Positions 20,395-39,242 of a DNA stretch of 64,000 nt are shown one piece after another. The DNA is taken from assembly GCA_034416335.1 (NCBI GenBank), contig DAOULV010000018.1, forward strand, positions 38,788 through 102,787, given 5' to 3'. This stretch comes from Dehalococcoidales bacterium (lineage in GTDB: Bacteria > Chloroflexota > Dehalococcoidia > Dehalococcoidales > UBA2162). Within the stretch, counting starts at the first letter, position 1; every line of letters starts with the position of its first letter. The notes under the pieces are model-generated. The model was not told where the DNA came from. It saw nothing but the letters and a program-made list of their open reading frames with translations, and searched no databases. The translations under genes were made by a program, and so were the position numbers.

Positions 20395-20500
20395 AGTGGC
20401 ATGGGCGGTTGCCAGAGCGAGTGAGGGGTCGAGGGAAGGAATTGATATAGATTGCTACACTTTCCGCCTCGGGCGGATTGACGCCGAGTCTCGCAATGAC
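20395..20500. repeat. REP-like element (tatagattgc...gacgccgagtctcgcaatgac family)
   Basis: Near-identical to segments at 26017-26070 and 26262-26320. Confidence 0.7.
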
Positions 20501-20540
20501 AGCGAGGGCAACCGGGCGACGCCGTGGAGGGCTTTTGATG

Positions 20541-21167
20541 CTATTTCCCGGTGTCGAAGAGCCAATAGAACCGGGTAAGAACACGGGAGGTAGTCTTAGC
20601 TCCTTCGAACCAGGCTCCCCGAAGAGCCTGGTTCATGATCCTGGTCCTGGCGTCAGCGGTATTATTCAGCATGGAGATATCAAGGCTGGCAAGGGAGCTT
20701 TCGAGCCGAACCCGCGCGGAATCGAGTATCTGAGCCTGTATGCGGAGTTTTTCGAGGGCTATACCGGCGCATCTTTTCATTTCCGCACCGCGGGTGTACG
20801 GGCAGATACCGAGCAGGTAATCACGAATGGCGAAGGTCTCGGTAGTGACGGATTTGCGTTTCGGATCGCCCCGGTAGAGGAACTTGAATTCGTCGAGGCG
20901 GGCGGGCAGCACCTGGCGGAGGAACTCGCAGGTTTCGGAATACCATCGCTGGTAGGATGAGGAGAAGCGGCCACAGCGGCGGTTCCTCAGGTTCCGACCG
21001 GCGAGAGTGTCTTCCATATCGAGGCAGAGGTCCCGTGAAACCTCCACCAGCCTGTCCAGGTCCGCCTGTAACTTATCGCTGTTCGGGAAGGAGATATCGC
21101 GGGAATCCTCGGCGATACGTTTCAGTAATTCAAACGATTTACGAAACTCAGTATTTTTAGCGTCCAT
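20541..21167 (-). CDS. Hypothetical protein
   Basis: 208 aa ORF with host-like GC. No motif recognised. It lies downstream of, and co-directional with, the AT-rich defence island. Confidence 0.5.
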   Translation of the reverse strand: MDAKNTEFRKSFELLKRIAEDSRDISFPNSDKLQADLDRLVEVSRDLCLDMEDTLAGRNLRNRRCGRFSSSYQRWYSETCEFLRQVLPARLDEFKFLYRGDPKRKSVTTETFAIRDYLLGICPYTRGAEMKRCAGIALEKLRIQAQILDSARVRLESSLASLDISMLNNTADARTRIMNQALRGAWFEGAKTTSRVLTRFYWLFDTGK

Positions 21168-21343: not shown

Positions 21344-21709
21344 TTAAGATAATTTCTTCTTTAAATTATTCCAAGTCCACGCTACTACCTCTCCAGCACC
21401 TTCGATCCTCTGAGGATTATGTCTTTTCTCGCGAAGTTGGAATCTTCTTTTGTTCAATTGTCGAGCCATTTTGACTTCGCGCAATACACCAGTGGCTTGG
21501 TGTGTGTTTTCTCTTAATAGAACAACAAACACGTTGCAGTTATTAATCGCCTCTCTTGCTCTTTGTTGCCAATTTGGTATTCGACCTTCTAGTGACATAT
21601 CTTTTACAGAAAACGGTGAATCTTGTCGTTCGGATTGAGCAATAAAATTGTTTTTCATGTCTAGATCATGTTCGTAATCGAAACTCAAAAATACTTTGGT
21701 TTTTGACAT
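21344..21709 (-). CDS. TIR-like protein (DUF1863 / ThsB-like)
   Basis: Start taken at the internal ATG (MSKTKVFLSFDYEHD...). The FLSFDYE N-terminal strand, the NCNVFVVLL strand and the GVLREVKMA helix with a conserved Glu match the ThsB/MTH538 TIR-like pattern. AT-rich. Confidence 0.7.
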   Translation of the reverse strand: MSKTKVFLSFDYEHDLDMKNNFIAQSERQDSPFSVKDMSLEGRIPNWQQRAREAINNCNVFVVLLRENTHQATGVLREVKMARQLNKRRFQLREKRHNPQRIEGAGEVVAWTWNNLKKKLS

Positions 21710-21734
21710 CTTAATTAATGAATGATTAGTTAAT

Positions 21735-22628
21735 CTATGGGGTATCCCTCCTAGCTCTCCATTGTGTATGTTCTCTTGAAAATGCGTTTTCAGCATCACC
21801 TACAAATTTTGAAAATTCTTTTTCATCTTTGATTTCCGAATGCGCCGCTCGTACAATACTAATCTCATGGGCTGTAAAAATGTATGAAGTAGCCAAATCT
21901 TGAAAACGTTTTGCTTGTATCCAAGCTACAACAGATGCTGCTAATGTTGAGAATATACCTGTGGGGTAATATAGCCATTCAGGAACAAAGATTCTTATAA
22001 TAGCAGAAGATATCGCACATATCTGAAAAGCGATCATGACATAGAACCAAATATTGCCTCTATGTTTATTTTTAGAAGACGTGTTCGTATACCAAGCTCT
22101 TTGATGGTCAATTCTATTAGTAAGATAGATGTTTTTTCTTTGTTCAAAATCAAGTTCTCTGATATAATCCATAGATTCAGTTATTTGTTCACGGTCAGAA
22201 GAACCGTTATTGAAATATTTACAAATATCGCTTACTTCTCCGAGTATTCTTTTTAATTCGCTTAATAATAGTGCTCTTGCCGTATCATCATCATACGGTT
22301 CTGCTTTCATCATATATCTCCAGCAAATAGTTTTTATTGATTCAGTAGCAGACCTGGCAAGATACCACAATCTGTCATATCTTTTTAACACTAGTATATA
22401 AGAATATATAGGTACGATTAGCAGTATAGTAGCTGTGATTATAGACAAGGTTATTACATCACTAGGGAAGATAGAGAATATGGCTGCTAACGATAGTAAA
22501 ATCAGGATGGAACCTATCCCGATATAATGGTATCTTTGTGTAATCTTTGAAACATGACTAGTTTCTTTATATAAGGCTGGATATACTGAAGAATCTAATT
22601 TCAAATCATTCATGTTCATTCTTCTCAA
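21735..22628 (-). CDS. Double SLATT / DUF4231-like 4-TM membrane protein (putative effector)
   Basis: 297 aa. Two 2-TM hairpins (about aa 35-85 and 195-245) are each followed by an amphipathic helix (W..ARSATESIK..WRY and RFQDLATSYIFTAHEI). The start overlaps the upstream gene's stop (ATGAATGA). Alternative ATG starts at 22619 and 22613. Confidence 0.65.
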   Translation of the reverse strand: MRRMNMNDLKLDSSVYPALYKETSHVSKITQRYHYIGIGSILILLSLAAIFSIFPSDVITLSIITATILLIVPIYSYILVLKRYDRLWYLARSATESIKTICWRYMMKAEPYDDDTARALLLSELKRILGEVSDICKYFNNGSSDREQITESMDYIRELDFEQRKNIYLTNRIDHQRAWYTNTSSKNKHRGNIWFYVMIAFQICAISSAIIRIFVPEWLYYPTGIFSTLAASVVAWIQAKRFQDLATSYIFTAHEISIVRAAHSEIKDEKEFSKFVGDAENAFSREHTQWRARRDTP

Positions 22629-24738
22629 ATAATATTACATCATAATTTTCTTTTAATTCTGTAGAAGCCTTTTGGCGAAAACAGGAAATCACCTCATTGG
22701 CAAAATTGAACAAGGTTTTAGTTATTTCAGTACAGCTATATTCAGGAGAATATATAAATAGATCAGGAAAATTTACAGCGAGATATTCTAAAGGTGTGTG
22801 TAATAAGTTATGTGAAAAGCGTAACAGATCTGCTATCTTAACCATTGTTTCAAGTGTTCGCTCAGGTAATCTATAAAATGAGGGCGATTCGAAAATATTA
22901 AATATGTCTATTAAACATTCATCATATTTATTGGGAGTTTTCCCCATACAAAGAGCAACTCGCCTTATAATGCATGGAAGGCAATCTCCATCGTGAATAC
23001 CTTGATAATCAAAGATATCTAACCTCTTGGCTAATATTTTTACTCTAGAGTAGTTATAACATGAACTTGTAAATGGAATAATAACTCTAGATAATCTTTT
23101 GTTTGCAATATATTTAACGATTTGACCTTTAGTTTTATATTTATAAGGATTCGAGATTGAAATATTAAGGTCAAATACCGAATTTATAGTAGATTGATAC
23201 GTTTCAATGAATTTAGGGTGAACAGTATGGGTGTTTACATGAGATTCTGACATAAGTGGATTAATAGCTATGGGTCCATTCTCAAACATAAATATATTAG
23301 TATTTCCTACCTCGACTGAGACTGCATAAGCTATTGATAAATAAAAGAATGACCTTAAATGTTGGAGAAATAAATCTCTATGGTAACCTTTTAACTTATA
23401 GGAACCCTTCTTCTTCCTTGAAGGTTGCCAAGATACTTTCAAATGAGGTAGATCTGTATTCATTACATGGTTCATCTGGTCTAATAACCTTGTCTGAATC
23501 CCTGATAAATTACCGGAGGCATAACTAATTAGACTAGGTGAATATCCTTTACTTATTGCCCATATTATTCCAGCAGCGCTATCTATGCCGCCTGAAAATA
23601 GGCAACTGCATCCATTTTCCACTTTAGTGAATTTGATATTTTCAACTTTCGGTTCGTTATTAGCGGAAAAATATAGATTAATAGTATCTCTTGAGAGATA
23701 CGATATTGTTTTTGATAACGATGATTTTTGACTTTGCCAAATTTCCGGGTGACGAACTGGTATATATACATCAAGTTCTCGATAATAGTCAATATCCCTG
23801 TCTATGTATAAATCAGATATATATATAACAAAAGCTATCTCTAATAAATCACGCGTTAGGGAGTTTAAGGGGTGTCCTACGAAAGATTCAATATCTGATA
23901 AATCGAATGATACGTTTTTATCTTTGCCATTGAGGATTATTCTAATGGCGTTATCATCTACAATATAATCTTCGGAAAGTTTTTTTATAGGAATTTTCCC
24001 AACGATAACATTAATTCTAGTTTTTTGATTTCTTTTTCCTGAATTATCATCACGCCAACTAAGGAAAGGGAGTTTCTCCTTAAATCCAGTAGAAATTCGT
24101 TTAATTTTCGAGTTAATGCGACCTTTTGCTTGAGAATCAATGAAATATGGTACAAGTGATTTGGCTATATCATTACATTTACTAAATATAGCTTGTCTTA
24201 AAATATTTTGTTCATCTGTACTAACAAGTTTACCGTTAAGGAATTGGTATGAATATCCGAAATCCGTGCTGCCCTGAGATTTCCCACGAAGAATAGTCAT
24301 ACTTTGGTTAAAAAGAAAGTATGAAAGGAAAGTTTCAAATATAGTGGTTAGATTAATGTCTTTAGATAATGAATAAATCTCTTTAATAAACTGAATATTA
24401 CTAAAATTTTGTCCCTGTTTATCAGGGAATAATCTGGGGGAATCTAATAGTGTTAATGATATTGTTTGCTTAAAAGATCGTTCAATAATGTCACCAAGAG
24501 GAAATGTATATAGACTTGGATTATCTCTGGTAACGATATCATATATTAAATCGGAGAACGAATAAGGCTCGAGTTTAATTTCATCAGAGAAATCATCTTC
24601 ATTAACAAATGCAGAAAAACGTTCTTCGTGTAAACAGCGCAGTAAAGCATTTAAACTTACGGCACATATATATAATTTTTTGGAAGTATCATTTATCTTA
24701 TATGAAGCAAAAGCTTGTGTTAGCAAATAATCAATCAT
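22606..24738 (-). CDS. Large QueC-like PP-loop ATP-pyrophosphatase fusion protein (N-terminal ~290 aa unknown)
   Basis: 710 aa. PP-loop LFSGGIDS at aa 380-387 (plus 23578-23595). The pre-PP-loop segment DLLEIAFVIYISD..IPV is similar to QatC-type proteins. C-terminal Cys cluster C560/C586xxC589/C597. Confidence 0.7.
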   Translation of the reverse strand: MIDYLLTQAFASYKINDTSKKLYICAVSLNALLRCLHEERFSAFVNEDDFSDEIKLEPYSFSDLIYDIVTRDNPSLYTFPLGDIIERSFKQTISLTLLDSPRLFPDKQGQNFSNIQFIKEIYSLSKDINLTTIFETFLSYFLFNQSMTILRGKSQGSTDFGYSYQFLNGKLVSTDEQNILRQAIFSKCNDIAKSLVPYFIDSQAKGRINSKIKRISTGFKEKLPFLSWRDDNSGKRNQKTRINVIVGKIPIKKLSEDYIVDDNAIRIILNGKDKNVSFDLSDIESFVGHPLNSLTRDLLEIAFVIYISDLYIDRDIDYYRELDVYIPVRHPEIWQSQKSSLSKTISYLSRDTINLYFSANNEPKVENIKFTKVENGCSCLFSGGIDSAAGIIWAISKGYSPSLISYASGNLSGIQTRLLDQMNHVMNTDLPHLKVSWQPSRKKKGSYKLKGYHRDLFLQHLRSFFYLSIAYAVSVEVGNTNIFMFENGPIAINPLMSESHVNTHTVHPKFIETYQSTINSVFDLNISISNPYKYKTKGQIVKYIANKRLSRVIIPFTSSCYNYSRVKILAKRLDIFDYQGIHDGDCLPCIIRRVALCMGKTPNKYDECLIDIFNIFESPSFYRLPERTLETMVKIADLLRFSHNLLHTPLEYLAVNFPDLFIYSPEYSCTEITKTLFNFANEVISCFRQKASTELKENYDVILFEKNEHE

Positions 24739-24780
24739 AAGGCAATCCTAAAATATTGAAAATGGATTATCGGGGTATGT

Positions 24781-25389
24781 CTAGCCACTTACTCCACGCC
24801 TTCTCTCAATTTGTTTTGTCCTTTTACTTAAGACTTTAGCAAATTCTGCATCGGGGTCTTCTAACCAATCTTGTAAAGCAGCAAAGTCAGGATTGTAAGC
24901 GATGTCTTCTTGCCACGATTCCTGTGTAGTAAAAGGACCTTCGGAAGCTAGTTTATAGTATTCACTTATTGTATTTTCCGAATTTGATTTGGGTTTTCTT
25001 ATAGCATTGACTATATTCTTAGTATTCCATTTTACCTGGTGGTTAAAAACCTGTAGTTCTCGTGGTAGTCTTTGCGATCCATGTGGACTTACTACAATTA
25101 TGTTTTTATCCATCTCAAGTGCAATTTCTATTTCTTTATGAATCCATTTACGATGTTTGGTATACATACCAGCGATAATTAAAACAGATTTAGCAGGACG
25201 TATTTGCCTTCTTAAAGAAGCTTCGAGTTGTGATTCACTCTTCCTAGCGAACCTACGATCTTGGGGGACACTATAATTCCGAAATTTAAAACGCTTGTGA
25301 TCTGATAACAATTCAGAAAGGCGTTCGTAATCACTACTACGACTCCATACATGACTTATGAAAATAGGATAACTTTTTAACTTTGGCAT
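24781..25389 (-). CDS. TIR-like protein (DUF1863 / ThsB-like) with C-terminal extension
   Basis: 202 aa. YPIFISHVW..DY N-terminal strand, the SVLIIAG strand, and WIHKEIEIA with a conserved Glu. First gene of the operon. Confidence 0.7.
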   Translation of the reverse strand: MPKLKSYPIFISHVWSRSSDYERLSELLSDHKRFKFRNYSVPQDRRFARKSESQLEASLRRQIRPAKSVLIIAGMYTKHRKWIHKEIEIALEMDKNIIVVSPHGSQRLPRELQVFNHQVKWNTKNIVNAIRKPKSNSENTISEYYKLASEGPFTTQESWQEDIAYNPDFAALQDWLEDPDAEFAKVLSKRTKQIERRRGVSG

Positions 25390-25418
25390 ATAATATTCTT
25401 GTATGATTATTTATGGGA

Positions 25419-25447
25419 ATAATAATGCTCATATACAAATTTGTCAA
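25419..25447 (-). promoter_or_regulatory. Sigma70-type promoter of the TIR/QueC-like/SLATT/TIR operon
   Basis: The minus strand reads TTGACA (25447-25442), a 17-nt spacer, then TATTAT (25424-25419). This is about 30 nt upstream of the ATG at 25389. Confidence 0.45.
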
Positions 25448-25754
25448 CATATTAAAATAGTCGCGTACTTAAGAGATAAATTGCTAACCGGTTTGGAATA
25501 ACGGCTAACATTCTACGGACATTCATACACGAAATACAAGTCAGTAATGATCTGACCGTTATCAACCCATCCCTTTTCCGTCTCTCCCGATTTTCATGCG
25601 GGATATGGTCTTTCCCTTGATAAGGGAAGGGAGAGACTTACAAATAGAACTCGTATTTAGTTGCGGCGATTACTGTTATTATAATTCCGTTCGCCCCCGT
25701 ATCAAGTACGGGGCAGGTTCTGAGCTTGTCGAAGGGCGCCGTTGTGGTTCGACA

Positions 25755-25912
25755 GGCTCACCACGAACGGCTGACTATGGACGGCTCACCACGAATGGCT
25801 AACTATGGACGGTTCATCACGAACGGCTAACTATGGACGGCTCACCACGAACGGCTAACTATGGACGGTTCATCACGAACGGCTGACTATGGACGGTTCA
25901 TCACGAACGGCT
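25755..25912. repeat. 28-bp tandem repeat, about 5.6 copies
   Basis: ggctcaccacgaacggctRactatggac repeats with an exact 28-bp period (unit starts at 25755, 25783, 25811, 25839, 25867, 25895). There are no spacers. Confidence 0.9.
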
Positions 25913-26009
25913 TGATTATCATACTTTTCTGTGCAACCAGGTACTCGTGCCGGTAAAATTCCACTTATTGATGGTATGGGGCGGTCGCCAGGGCAAGCAA
26001 GAGGTCGAG

Positions 26010-26445
26010 GGAAGGAATTTATATAGATTGCCACGTCTCGGCTATTGACGCCGAGTCTCGCAATGACAGTGGGGAACGGATTGGCATCCGCCTGCGGCGG
26101 ACCTGTTGACGGCGGACCTCGCAATGACCCGCCTATGCCAACCCACCTACGTTAAAACTTCGGCGGACAAGGGCTTCGGCGGGCAGGCAGGAGATGGGTT
26201 CATCCTTCGACAAGCTCAGGACGAACGGGATAAAGTGTAGTCTCGCAATGACTTGAGGGTGTTATTTATAGAGATTGCCACGTCTCGGCTATTGACGCCG
26301 AGTCTCGCAATGACAGTGGGGAACGGATTGGCATCCGCCTGCGGCGGACCTGTTGGCGGCGGACCTCGCAATGACCCGCCTGCGTCAGGGCTTCGGCGGG
26401 CAGGCAGGAGATGGGTTCATCCTTCGACAGGCTCAGGACGAACGG
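26010..26445. repeat. Segmental duplication of composite REP elements (about 115 bp core x2)
   Basis: 26017-26135 and 26262-26385 are near-identical (tatagattgccacgtctcggctattgacgccgagtctcgcaatgacagtggggaacgg...). Both are followed by gggcttcggcgggcaggcaggagatgggttcatccttcgaca. Confidence 0.85.
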
Positions 26446-26825
26446 GAGAGGGTCAGGGTGAGGGGGCTAGGCGCAAATCGTTACTTTTCACCCTCACCTA
26501 ACCTCTCCCGTCAAGGGAGAGGAATGTCCTGATTGATATTAAGTGATGTTGATCGGAGGTTTCTTATCAAGGGAGAGGGTCAGGGTGAGGGGGCTAGGCG
26601 CAAATCGTTGTTTTTCACCCTCACCTAACCTCTCCCGTCAAGGGAGAGGAATATCCTGGTCGATATTAAGAGATGTTAATCAGAGGTTTTTTATCAAGGG
26701 AGAGGGTCAGGGTGAGGGGCTAGGCGCAAATCGTTACTTTTCACCCTCACCTAACCTCTCCCGTCAAGGGAGAGGAATGACTTGATCAATAGAGGGAGAG
26801 GAATATCCTGATAGATATTCGAGTT
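26444..26825. repeat. 127-bp tandem repeat x3, each unit a nested hairpin element
   Basis: gggagagggtcagggtgaggg starts at 26444, 26571 and 26698. Each unit contains the palindromes gggtgaggg..caccctcacc and cctctcccgtcaagggagagg. Confidence 0.9.
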
Positions 26826-38690: not shown

Positions 38691-39242
38691 CTAGACCTTG
38701 AGATATTCTAATATCTGGGCGGTCATTATTTCGGCACTCAGCAGCTGTTCAAACCTGACTAACCGGCACGGTAGTGTTTTCATCCATTCTTCGTGGAGCG
38801 CCCTGCTTCGCATTTCCGTTCCGGCGGTGTCGTACTGTGCCGCCCATTCCATAAAGCCAGCGTGGTTTTCATGAAACCATCCTCCCGGCGCCAGGGCTGC
38901 TTCGCCGAACCGTTTCAGTTCCCTCTCCCTGAGCCTTGAGAGACGCAGGTCCTGAGGTATCCAGAGAAACACCACCATGGTAAACATCGGGATTGAGAAG
39001 TCACCCCATCCGCAGAGAGAACCGGACAGCACCCACGAAGGATATTTCTCAAGATCGGGCTTCAACAACTCAACCCGCTGTTCCGGCTCTCTTTTTTCCG
39101 TGTAAGGGATCTCGGTTTTCACCCAGTAATAGTCATCGGTGTCCAGGTGAGGAATGCCGAGACGTTCGGCAAGTGCTTTACCGAGGGTAGTTGTCCCCGA
39201 ACCAGCAGACCCGAATATGTGTATCCTGTTATTCATGCCCAT
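38691..39242 (-). CDS. P-loop NTPase, adenylate/shikimate-kinase-like
   Basis: 183 aa. Walker A motif GSAGSGTTTLG. Confidence 0.7.
   Translation of the reverse strand: MGMNNRIHIFGSAGSGTTTLGKALAERLGIPHLDTDDYYWVKTEIPYTEKREPEQRVELLKPDLEKYPSWVLSGSLCGWGDFSIPMFTMVVFLWIPQDLRLSRLRERELKRFGEAALAPGGWFHENHAGFMEWAAQYDTAGTEMRSRALHEEWMKTLPCRLVRFEQLLSAEIMTAQILEYLKV

Follow-up and report, generated by a model that had tools for sequence, protein, structure and literature searches.

The 64,000-nucleotide (nt) stretch analysed here (the window; positions 38,788 to 102,787 of contig DAOULV010000018.1, Dehalococcoidales bacterium, assembly GCA_034416335.1) carries four closely spaced minus-strand open reading frames (ORFs) within positions 21344-25389, encoding products of 202, 710, ~294 and 121-151 amino acids (aa). 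In order of transcription, these are a ThsB-type TIR protein with a C-terminal tail (ThsB1), a fusion of a QatB-like domain to a QatC-type PP-loop ATPase (hereafter the giant), a double-SLATT membrane protein, and a second, minimal ThsB-type TIR protein (ThsB2). The GC content of the segment was 33.3%, compared to 48.8% and 50.9% in its flanks. Intergenic gaps were limited to 42 nt between thsB1 and the giant gene and 25 nt between the SLATT gene and thsB2, while the TGA of the giant gene (22606-22608) was overlapped by the SLATT gene, whose ATG lies at 22619 or 22613. Both the AT-rich, tightly packed gene set and the overlap at the QueC-like/SLATT junction, described in an initial annotation of this DNA, were recovered; the four genes form a single compact operon, and the overlap is a probable sign of coupled expression. 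A promoter-like TTGACA-17-TATTAT site on the same strand (25419-25447), matching 11 of 12 consensus positions and located 30 nt 5' of the first ATG, is a plausible candidate promoter for the operon; the site already proposed was thus found, although such sites were not enriched across the region (17 versus 19.8 in shuffles).

The giant (22606-24738, minus strand) was characterized with an AlphaFold2 model and with PDB fold and profile matches. The model, based on 21 homologues (pLDDT 87, pTM 0.89), comprised an all-helical region (aa 1-225), an α/β region (aa 240-360), a QueC core (aa 376-600) and a helical region (aa 612-703). Two parts were delimited accordingly: an N-terminal all-helical domain (aa 1-235; 24034-24738, minus strand) and a QatC-type PP-loop ATPase part (aa 238-710; 22609-24027, minus strand), the latter including a QatC N-extension, the QueC core, a Zn site and a helical C-extension. 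Residues 292-602 matched QatC profiles (NCBIfam E = 1.8e-50; PADLOC E = 3e-45), and the best PDB profile match by sequence was also a QatC (9vlk_A; E = 9e-50). In a Foldseek search of the model against the PDB, the best match was the QatC chain 9y01_B of the QatB-QatC complex (E = 7e-14, TMt = 0.73, 490 columns, almost the entire QatC being aligned), with QueC and Cap9 ranking far below; Cap9 was a weak match in both sequence (9nto_B; E = 0.066) and fold (E = 1e-2). Since the NCBIfam score of 172 bits does not reach the 280 required of an equivalog, the giant is, by its profile scores, a relative within the QatC clade and not an equivalog.

The ATP pyrophosphate-binding motif SGGIDS (aa 382-387; 23578-23595, minus strand) was read in the translation, and its residues S382, G383, G384, D386 and S387 were invariant in the 21 homologues. 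Other invariant motifs of the family were ENGPxAxNP, N502-T503-x-T505-x-H507-P508, and C560, H582, C586 and C589, with C560, C586 and C589 forming the Cys cluster (position 583 is an Asp here and a Cys in some homologues). T503 and T505 aligned with the T-x-T threonines of QatC, which stand where QueC and Cap9 have the Tyr and Asp that bind 7-carboxy-7-deazaguanine (CDG; PMC13279940). The ATPase part of the giant therefore keeps an intact ATP site, the Zn site and the T-x-T motif, and the proposal of a QueC/QatC-like protein with an SGGIDS loop and a C-terminal Cys cluster was borne out.

To trace the origin of the N-terminal domain, an exhaustive search of 1.84 billion representatives was made with a profile built from aa 1-235. 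Among the 73 clusters retrieved, ~45 were giants of 670-800 aa, and several were standalone proteins of 254-270 aa starting with MGTS, the N-terminal hallmark of QatB (E = 5e-15 to 6e-8), which aligned to the domain of the giant only from their residue 35-54 onward (hhalign probability 99.5%, E = 1e-22, 200 columns). On one metagenome contig (L102), an MGTS gene was directly followed by a split QatC-like gene, whose first 150 residues shared 34% identity with residues 242-387 of the giant (E = 4e-22). The giant itself starts with MIDYLL, and none of the proteins of the operon starts with MG. Judging from these alignments, the giant is an MGTS-partner/QatC-like split pair that has been fused, minus the N-terminal tail of the partner. 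The initial annotation had stated that no QatB is present, which has to be corrected, as residues 1-235 are homologous to these QatB-like, MGTS-tailed partners. The term "QatB-like", rather than "QatB", is used for the domain because of its position, motif and partner.

Two related candidates were discarded, namely other long QatC-like ORFs (620-712 aa), which are not QatB-like/QatC fusions, and an extra domain in 985-aa members of the giant family, which consists of Ala-rich insertions only. A second class of QatC-like proteins (617-668 aa), mostly alphaproteobacterial, was always preceded by a partner of 256-267 aa (240 aa in L097) with an MGH(x)(R/H)LG start (L030, L033, L036, L039, L046, L054, L056, L060, L063, L064, L068, L069, L071, L073, L076, L081, L092 and L097). 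This partner differs from the MGTS QatB, yet is homologous to the N-domain family of the giant (hhalign probability 97.4% between the standalone MGTS proteins and the MGH-starting family, found there upstream of 620-aa QatC-like genes).

The gene thsB1 (24781-25389, minus strand) encodes a 202-aa protein with a TIR domain at ~aa 8-133. It matched Pfam ThsB_TIR (PF08937; E = 1.9e-17, above cut-off) and the PADLOC ThsB model (E = 6.6e-16), and its catalytic Glu (E86) was invariant among seven aligned orthologues. Compared to the TIR-domain sequence of the validated type VII ThsB of Pseudohongiella nitratireducens (Yirmiya et al., Table S1), it showed 37% identity (E = 5e-23). The second TIR gene, thsB2, lies in an ORF at 21344-21799 (up to 151 aa) and its most likely start codon is the ATG at 21709, for a protein of 121 aa (21344-21709, minus strand), as its 71%-identical orthologue in L008 has the same length. 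ThsB2 also exceeded the Pfam ThsB_TIR cut-off (E = 2.3e-5; 25.1 bits versus 21.2) and retained a conserved Glu (E78), invariant across the aligned homologues; its identity to the small TIR that L006 and L011 encode upstream of their caspase gene was ~32%. The TIR-like pattern reported for both outer proteins was thereby confirmed.

What the initial annotation overlooked is the most telling feature of the operon, the C-terminal extension of ThsB1 (aa 135-202; 24784-24987, minus strand). In an alignment of seven giant-linked TIRs, the extension comprised a variable linker (~aa 135-158), a conserved block (W159, P167-D-F169, L172, W175, P179) and an invariant C-terminus ERRRG(V/T/M)SG, which is ERRRGVSG-COOH in the window. 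Five more full-length homologues terminated in (E/D/K)RRRGVSG, and all 12 full-length homologues seen ended in (E/D/K)RRRGxSG, or in TRRGGMSG in L096. The nearest short relatives (130-143 aa), with TIR domains 45-54% identical to that of ThsB1, stop straight after this domain. Two of their contexts were read, an operon in which the TIR gene has an 8xMP gene as its sole companion and a prophage-like region, neither adjoining a giant. An N-terminal MPxLK was common to the tailed TIRs and to these short untailed relatives, and can thus be regarded as a trait of the lineage, whereas the C-terminal extension appears to be the feature coupled to the giant. A modification at the N-terminus of ThsB1 (Pro2), similar to those of QatB and CdnD, was considered and rejected for this reason, and also because MPxLK is only ~6 residues long. 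One further TIR, encoded in a Longimicrobiales locus (L059:10039-10479, minus strand), resembled ThsB1 (34% identity over aa 4-141) and was located ~2 kb from a classical MGTS QatB and a 460-aa QatC, on the opposite strand.

The third gene of the operon (21735-22619, minus strand) encodes a protein of 294 aa from the ATG at 22619, or of 297 aa from an alternative start (21735-22628). It contains a SLATT_3 domain (aa 14-162; Pfam E = 4.7e-26, NCBIfam E = 3e-36) followed by a SLATT_1 domain (aa 165-287; Pfam E = 2.5e-36, NCBIfam E = 5e-39), all scores exceeding the cut-offs, and it also matched DUF4231 (E = 2e-15). Of the two hairpins of two transmembrane (TM) helices, each followed by a SLATT-like helix, that had been read from the sequence, both SLATT domains and the first hairpin (aa 30-79) were retrieved, while the second hairpin amounts to one clear hydrophobic segment (aa 189-213) and a helix after residue 213 seen by eye only. 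Orthologous proteins occupied the same position in L008 and L009/L010. The double-SLATT protein is presumed to be a four-TM effector similar to ThsH.

Overall, the giant family is rare, with a very patchy distribution: a word index of 5.8 billion proteins returned 29 matches, ~45 clusters at 50% identity were found among the 1.84 billion representatives, and the 185,579 species genomes included two full-length giants, both from Candidatus Nealsonbacteria. Neither tailed TIRs nor giants were found in IMG/VR. In 8 of the 11 giant loci with a readable context, a tailed ThsB-type TIR gene (197-219 aa) was located directly upstream of the giant gene, in the same orientation (window/L001, L003, L008, L009, L011, L006, L013 and L096; giants 35-54% identical). 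The accompanying genes varied from locus to locus. The pair was followed by a double-SLATT protein and a small TIR in the window (L001/L002) and in L008, where a HEPN-like gene is added, by a double-SLATT protein in L009/L010, and by a single SLATT_1 protein in L003-L005. In L006/L007 (Dehalococcoides mccartyi) and L011/L012, it was preceded by a small TIR, a Peptidase_C14 and a SLOG-like gene, with or without an ASCH gene, and in L013/L014 (giant truncated) and L096 (plus ASCH) the pair was found without a recognized effector. The genes flanking these loci also differed, and included PEPCK, ClpB, a type III-like restriction system, an integrase and a NACHT protein. The conserved unit is therefore the pair of tailed TIR and giant, with an exchangeable effector. 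The gene combination described initially is not a random juxtaposition, as related loci exist, although the full four-gene set was present at only one other locus, L008.

Several of these loci had additional features. The fifth gene of L008 (9396-9986) encodes a 196-aa protein that has a hydrophobic segment at its N-terminus and weakly matches HEPN (RiboL-PSP; E = 4.6e-4). A type IV Thoeris-like cluster was located upstream of the TIR/giant pair at L006:3170-4998 and L011:3458-5310, the third gene of which (161-169 aa) showed a weak SLOG/YpsA likeness (GITGHQ…GKGGTADIV; Pfam E = 0.005). L006 also carried a gene for a DUF2188 protein, a putative Thoeris effector (Yirmiya et al.; 10.64898/2025.12.03.692087). 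The D. mccartyi giant is annotated as 609 aa, leaving a gap of 336 nt after the TIR gene (L006:5664-6001); as a member of its 90% cluster reaches 711 aa (P0115), either the deposited start was probably miscalled or the gene is disrupted. In two Candidatus Nealsonbacteria loci of the candidate phyla radiation (CPR), small low-complexity proteins, which are not TIRs, directly precede the giant (L015:6189-6975; L016:6255-6779) and terminate in Gly/Ser tails (…GGGSGSGSGG, …KRSGSGG and …SGSGSGG).

Among known defence systems, the operon was closest in function to Thoeris. Type VII Thoeris consists of ThsB and the SLATT effector ThsH, with canonical cyclic ADP-ribose (cADPR) as the signal (Yirmiya et al., preprint, bioRxiv 10.64898/2025.12.03.692087), and the window likewise combines, in one operon, a ThsB-type TIR with its catalytic Glu and a SLATT membrane protein. 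Compared to the two-gene core of type VII, it adds the 710-aa fusion between TIR and SLATT, the ~65-aa extension of ThsB1 ending in RRRGxSG and a second minimal TIR, while its presumed effector is a SLATT_3+SLATT_1 tandem. The combination had initially been considered undescribed, but TIR+SLATT is thus already named, and a QueC-family helper in Thoeris was reported in the same preprint, where Thoeris operons with Cap2/Cap3 (the TIR having a C-terminal glycine tail) and with cap9/cap10/cap11 are presented (Fig. 6G; 10.64898/2025.12.03.692087). Type IV Thoeris associates a TIR with a caspase-like protease and uses N7-cADPR as the signal (10.64898/2025.12.03.692087). In L006 and L011/L012, the TIR/giant pair stands directly after such a set of small TIR, Peptidase_C14 and SLOG-like gene, which is absent from the window; the pair therefore behaves as a module joined to one Thoeris effector or another.

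With QatABCD, the operon shares a PP-loop ATPase with the QatC N- and C-extensions, SGGxDS, T-x-T and the Zn site, a QatB-like helical partner domain, and QatC as the top PDB match in both sequence and fold. In QatABCD, the partner is a separate QatB, whose N-terminal MGTS tail inserts into QatC's active site and whose Gly2 is essential (PMC13279940, PMC13376578, PMC13639016), whereas the partner domain in the window is fused to the enzyme and has no MGTS acceptor tail. Moreover, neither QatA (KAP NTPase) nor QatD (TatD) was found among the four genes or their neighbours, and what appears to be the client is a TIR whose glycine tail is located at the C-terminus instead of the N-terminus. As in type IV CBASS and in Thoeris with cap9/10/11, a QueC-family enzyme is ancillary to a nucleotide-signalling defence, its presumed target being a flexible, Gly-rich end of the enzyme that makes the signal. 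Unlike Cap9, which attaches 7-amido-7-deazaguanine (NDG) to Gly2 of the CD-NTase (Wassarman et al.), the enzyme of the window belongs to the QatC clade, has T503/T505 in place of the Tyr/Asp CDG site and is ~500 residues larger; no CD-NTase, TGT (Cap10) or Cap11 match was found in the operon or its flanks, and the TIR lacks the M(G/S)G(G/S)GG N-terminus, its conserved tail being C-terminal. Finally, type II CBASS and Thoeris with Cap2/Cap3, in which the signalling enzyme is conjugated at its C-terminal glycine in an E1/E2-like manner, also have a signalling enzyme with a glycine-ended C-terminal tail and an ATP-using enzyme encoded next to it. None of the loci examined carried E1/E2 Cap2 or JAB Cap3 genes, and the ATP-using enzyme in the window is a PP-loop ATPase of unrelated fold. 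Taken together, the operon appears to be functionally a type VII-like Thoeris and belongs neither to QatABCD nor to type IV CBASS. PADLOC 2.0 recognized ThsB and QatC through their individual models, but nothing at the level of a system, the 2026 survey of the QueC family does not mention a TIR or SLATT context, and the literature searched yielded no description of a QatB-like/QatC fusion, nor of such a fusion paired with a tailed TIR. Three things appear to be new: the fusion enzyme, its pairing with a ThsB that bears a C-terminal tail while the effectors change, and the chemistry implied at a protein terminus.

These features point, with a probability of roughly 0.55, to a Thoeris-family TIR+SLATT abortive-infection system extended by a dedicated protein-modifying enzyme that acts on the tail of ThsB1. 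The abortive-infection logic proposed in the initial annotation, in which TIR signalling controls a pore-forming SLATT protein, remains the best reading of the operon, and the role of the QueC-like protein is recast as that of a ThsB1-modifying fusion. Upon infection, the TIRs would turn NAD+ into a cyclic-ADP-ribose (ADPR)-type signal, as their characterized relatives do, canonical cADPR being the best guess in view of the 37% identity of ThsB1 to the validated type VII ThsB. By the same analogy, the SLATT protein would bind this signal, oligomerize and breach the membrane, leading to abortive infection. The client of the fusion enzyme would be ThsB1 rather than a nucleoside, since the giant mostly follows a ThsB1-type TIR directly while the effectors are swapped, and since the RRRGxSG extension is limited to these giant-linked TIRs. 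The flexible tail of ThsB1 may thus replace the lost N-terminal tail of QatB as the peptide entering the active site of the QatC part, where it would be modified covalently at the expense of ATP, either by amidation or ligation once the terminal carboxylate has been adenylated, or through attachment of the substrate of QatC. Such a modification may prime or gate TIR signalling, in the way that Cap9 (N-terminal NDG) and Cap2 (C-terminal adenylation) act on CBASS CD-NTases. Alternatively, the tail may merely dock the TIR, or take a QatC adduct.

The more specific version, in which the QatC-type PP-loop ATPase adenylates the C-terminal Gly carboxylate of the TIR and then amidates or ligates it, licensing Thoeris through an E1-like chemistry on an unrelated fold, is put forward as a tentative and rather doubtful proposal. 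A structural precedent exists in TtuA/TtuB, with TtuB inserting its C-terminal GG tail into the active site of TtuA, a PP-loop ATPase. In PP-loop enzymes, an N or S nucleophile is accepted once a carboxyl or keto oxygen has been adenylated (PMC13376578); a terminal Gly carboxylate would, speculatively, be a chemically reasonable first substrate, in parallel to the action of Cap2 on the C-terminus of the CD-NTase.

Several points weigh against modification of the ThsB1 tail within a Thoeris system. To our knowledge, no PP-loop enzyme adenylates a protein C-terminus, and the polarity is reversed compared to the only known protein modifications by the QueC family, which target N-terminal Gly amines. 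Gene context was read at ~11 giant loci of the ~45 clusters, and the TIR was absent at three of them (L095, L015 and L016). The Gly/Ser tails of the small CPR proteins offer weaker support for a tailed client, as a terminal Gly is unsurprising in low-complexity proteins. At L013 and L096, where the pair has no recognizable effector, the TIR could itself be the NAD+-depleting effector. The likeness of the SLATT protein to ThsH is at the level of Pfam homology only. As for the N-domain, its isolated model gave no significant Foldseek match in the PDB, with the solved QatB not recovered, and the wording "QatB-like" was retained because the curated QatB models matched neither the domain nor its MGTS-tailed relatives, and because hhalign against the classical proteobacterial QatB returned a probability of 0.7%, similarity being undetectable beyond the MGTS tail.

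The pairs without SLATT or caspase at L013 and L096 would also fit a self-contained Qat-like system, in which the fusion senses infection and activates the tailed TIR as an NAD+-depleting effector, SLATT, caspase and small TIR genes being added on or simply neighbouring. QatBC alone indeed defends against some phages (PMC13279940), and, as Yirmiya et al. warn, certain TIRs found in unverified configurations could act as NADase effectors (10.64898/2025.12.03.692087). This was nonetheless considered rather unlikely: the TIR of ThsB1 groups with signal producers, with its identity to the cADPR-producing type VII ThsB, its closest short relatives are found in two-gene operons of TIR and membrane protein, and a known Thoeris-type effector is part of the gene string at five of the eight tailed-TIR loci, the start of the effector gene overlapping the stop of the giant in the window. 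It is clearly less probable that the product is a small molecule, the enzyme making or activating a deazapurine-like base or carboxylate that the TIR joins to ADP-ribose by base exchange, yielding a novel signal for the SLATT protein, with the tail serving as a tether. The usual substrates of PP-loop enzymes, small-molecule carboxyl or keto groups (PMC13376578), would fit this scheme, as would the conjugation of ADPR to other moieties by TIRs, such as His-ADPR in type II Thoeris (10.64898/2025.12.03.692087), and the recurrence of ASCH proteins next to the enzyme family. In the giant, the Tyr/Asp by which QueC and Cap9 recognize CDG are replaced by the QatC-type T-x-T, and QatC is inactive with CDG and other deazaguanines (PMC13376578); the other genes of 7-deazaguanine biosynthesis are absent from the operon, while a protein substrate is suggested both by the fused QatB-like domain and by the tail with its terminal glycine.

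As defence genes cluster, and as a small TIR with SLATT or with a caspase could each be a complete Thoeris, a type VII or IV system may also have come to lie beside a degenerate, functionally unlinked Qat-like gene. Such a chance arrangement is very improbable, given that the order and orientation of tailed TIR and giant are kept at eight loci with giants only 35-54% identical and unrelated flanks, that the tail co-occurs with the giant, and that the giant and SLATT genes overlap; in L009, L010 and L003, which lack a second TIR, the tailed TIR is the sole TIR partner of the SLATT protein. Least probable of all is a role outside defence, in which the enzyme would be a QueC paralogue serving housekeeping or metabolism through queuosine or archaeosine-type chemistry, its partners being membrane and regulatory proteins. 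Some sources do annotate homologues as "7-cyano-7-deazaguanine synthase", but the substrate-recognition residues of QueC are missing, the closest protein is the defence protein QatC, the neighbours are TIR, SLATT, caspase, restriction-modification and NACHT genes, the operon lies in an AT-rich islet that was acquired horizontally and has repeats on both sides, and the distribution of the family is extremely patchy.

The giant family can be viewed as a natural experiment on QatC, in which the QatB acceptor tail was lost, the scaffold was fused and a new client appeared. As this client, a TIR, ends in an invariant RRRGxSG-COOH tail and has an enzymatic output that is known and can be assayed, both the partner and the probable modification site are explicit. 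Ancillary "priming" enzymes seem to move as modules among CBASS, Qat and Thoeris signalling systems, and here a single TIR/enzyme pair occurs plugged into SLATT or caspase effectors. Modification of the C-terminus, if true, would represent a new protein-activation chemistry for PP-loop ATPases. The implied chemistry bears directly on the unsolved reaction of QatC, whose AMPylated first substrate was left unidentified by the three 2026 structure papers (PMC13279940, PMC13376578, PMC13639016): if the C-terminal Gly is adenylated, a protein or peptide carboxylate would be indicated as this long-sought substrate.

ASCH (PUA-like) proteins recurred beside this QatC subfamily, their relatives acting on modified bases. 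They were encoded next to giants without SLATT (L006:7880-8308; L096:3068-3475; L095:4815-5600; L015:9087-9491 and L016:8939-9343, both on the minus strand), at the split MGTS-partner locus L103 (1281-1760) and next to one QatC of classical size (L028:5686-6039). They may represent a further component that, for instance, reads or removes the modification. The window itself is devoid of ASCH, SLOG-like and caspase genes.

Concerning the surroundings of the operon, the AT-rich island was bracketed by a direct repeat of ~110 nt, present in only three copies in the 64-kb window: a left copy (20395-20510), a right copy (25970-26075; 86-94% identical to the left one) and a further right copy (26264-26381). 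Its 26-nt core occurred three times in the 64 kb, for a chance expectation of 0. This repeat could delimit an inserted islet, or belong to a local repeat family; the bracketed stretch also takes in a GC-rich piece with a 208-aa ORF (20541-21167), which was ruled out as a member of the operon (55-58% GC, without family match). The repeats that had been described as REP clusters do flank the locus, but the label "REP" was not supported, as no Rfam family matched in or around the locus, repeats and tandem arrays included. Two tandem arrays were located just upstream of the operon, one with a 14/28-nt unit (GGCTCACCACGAACGGCTAACTATGGAC…; 25727-25940) and one with three copies of a 127-nt unit (26444-26823), and translation artefacts such as "SPSPNLSRQGRG" stem from these arrays. 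The genes adjoining the operon in the window encode PIG-L, acetyltransferase, glycosyltransferase and MBL-fold proteins.

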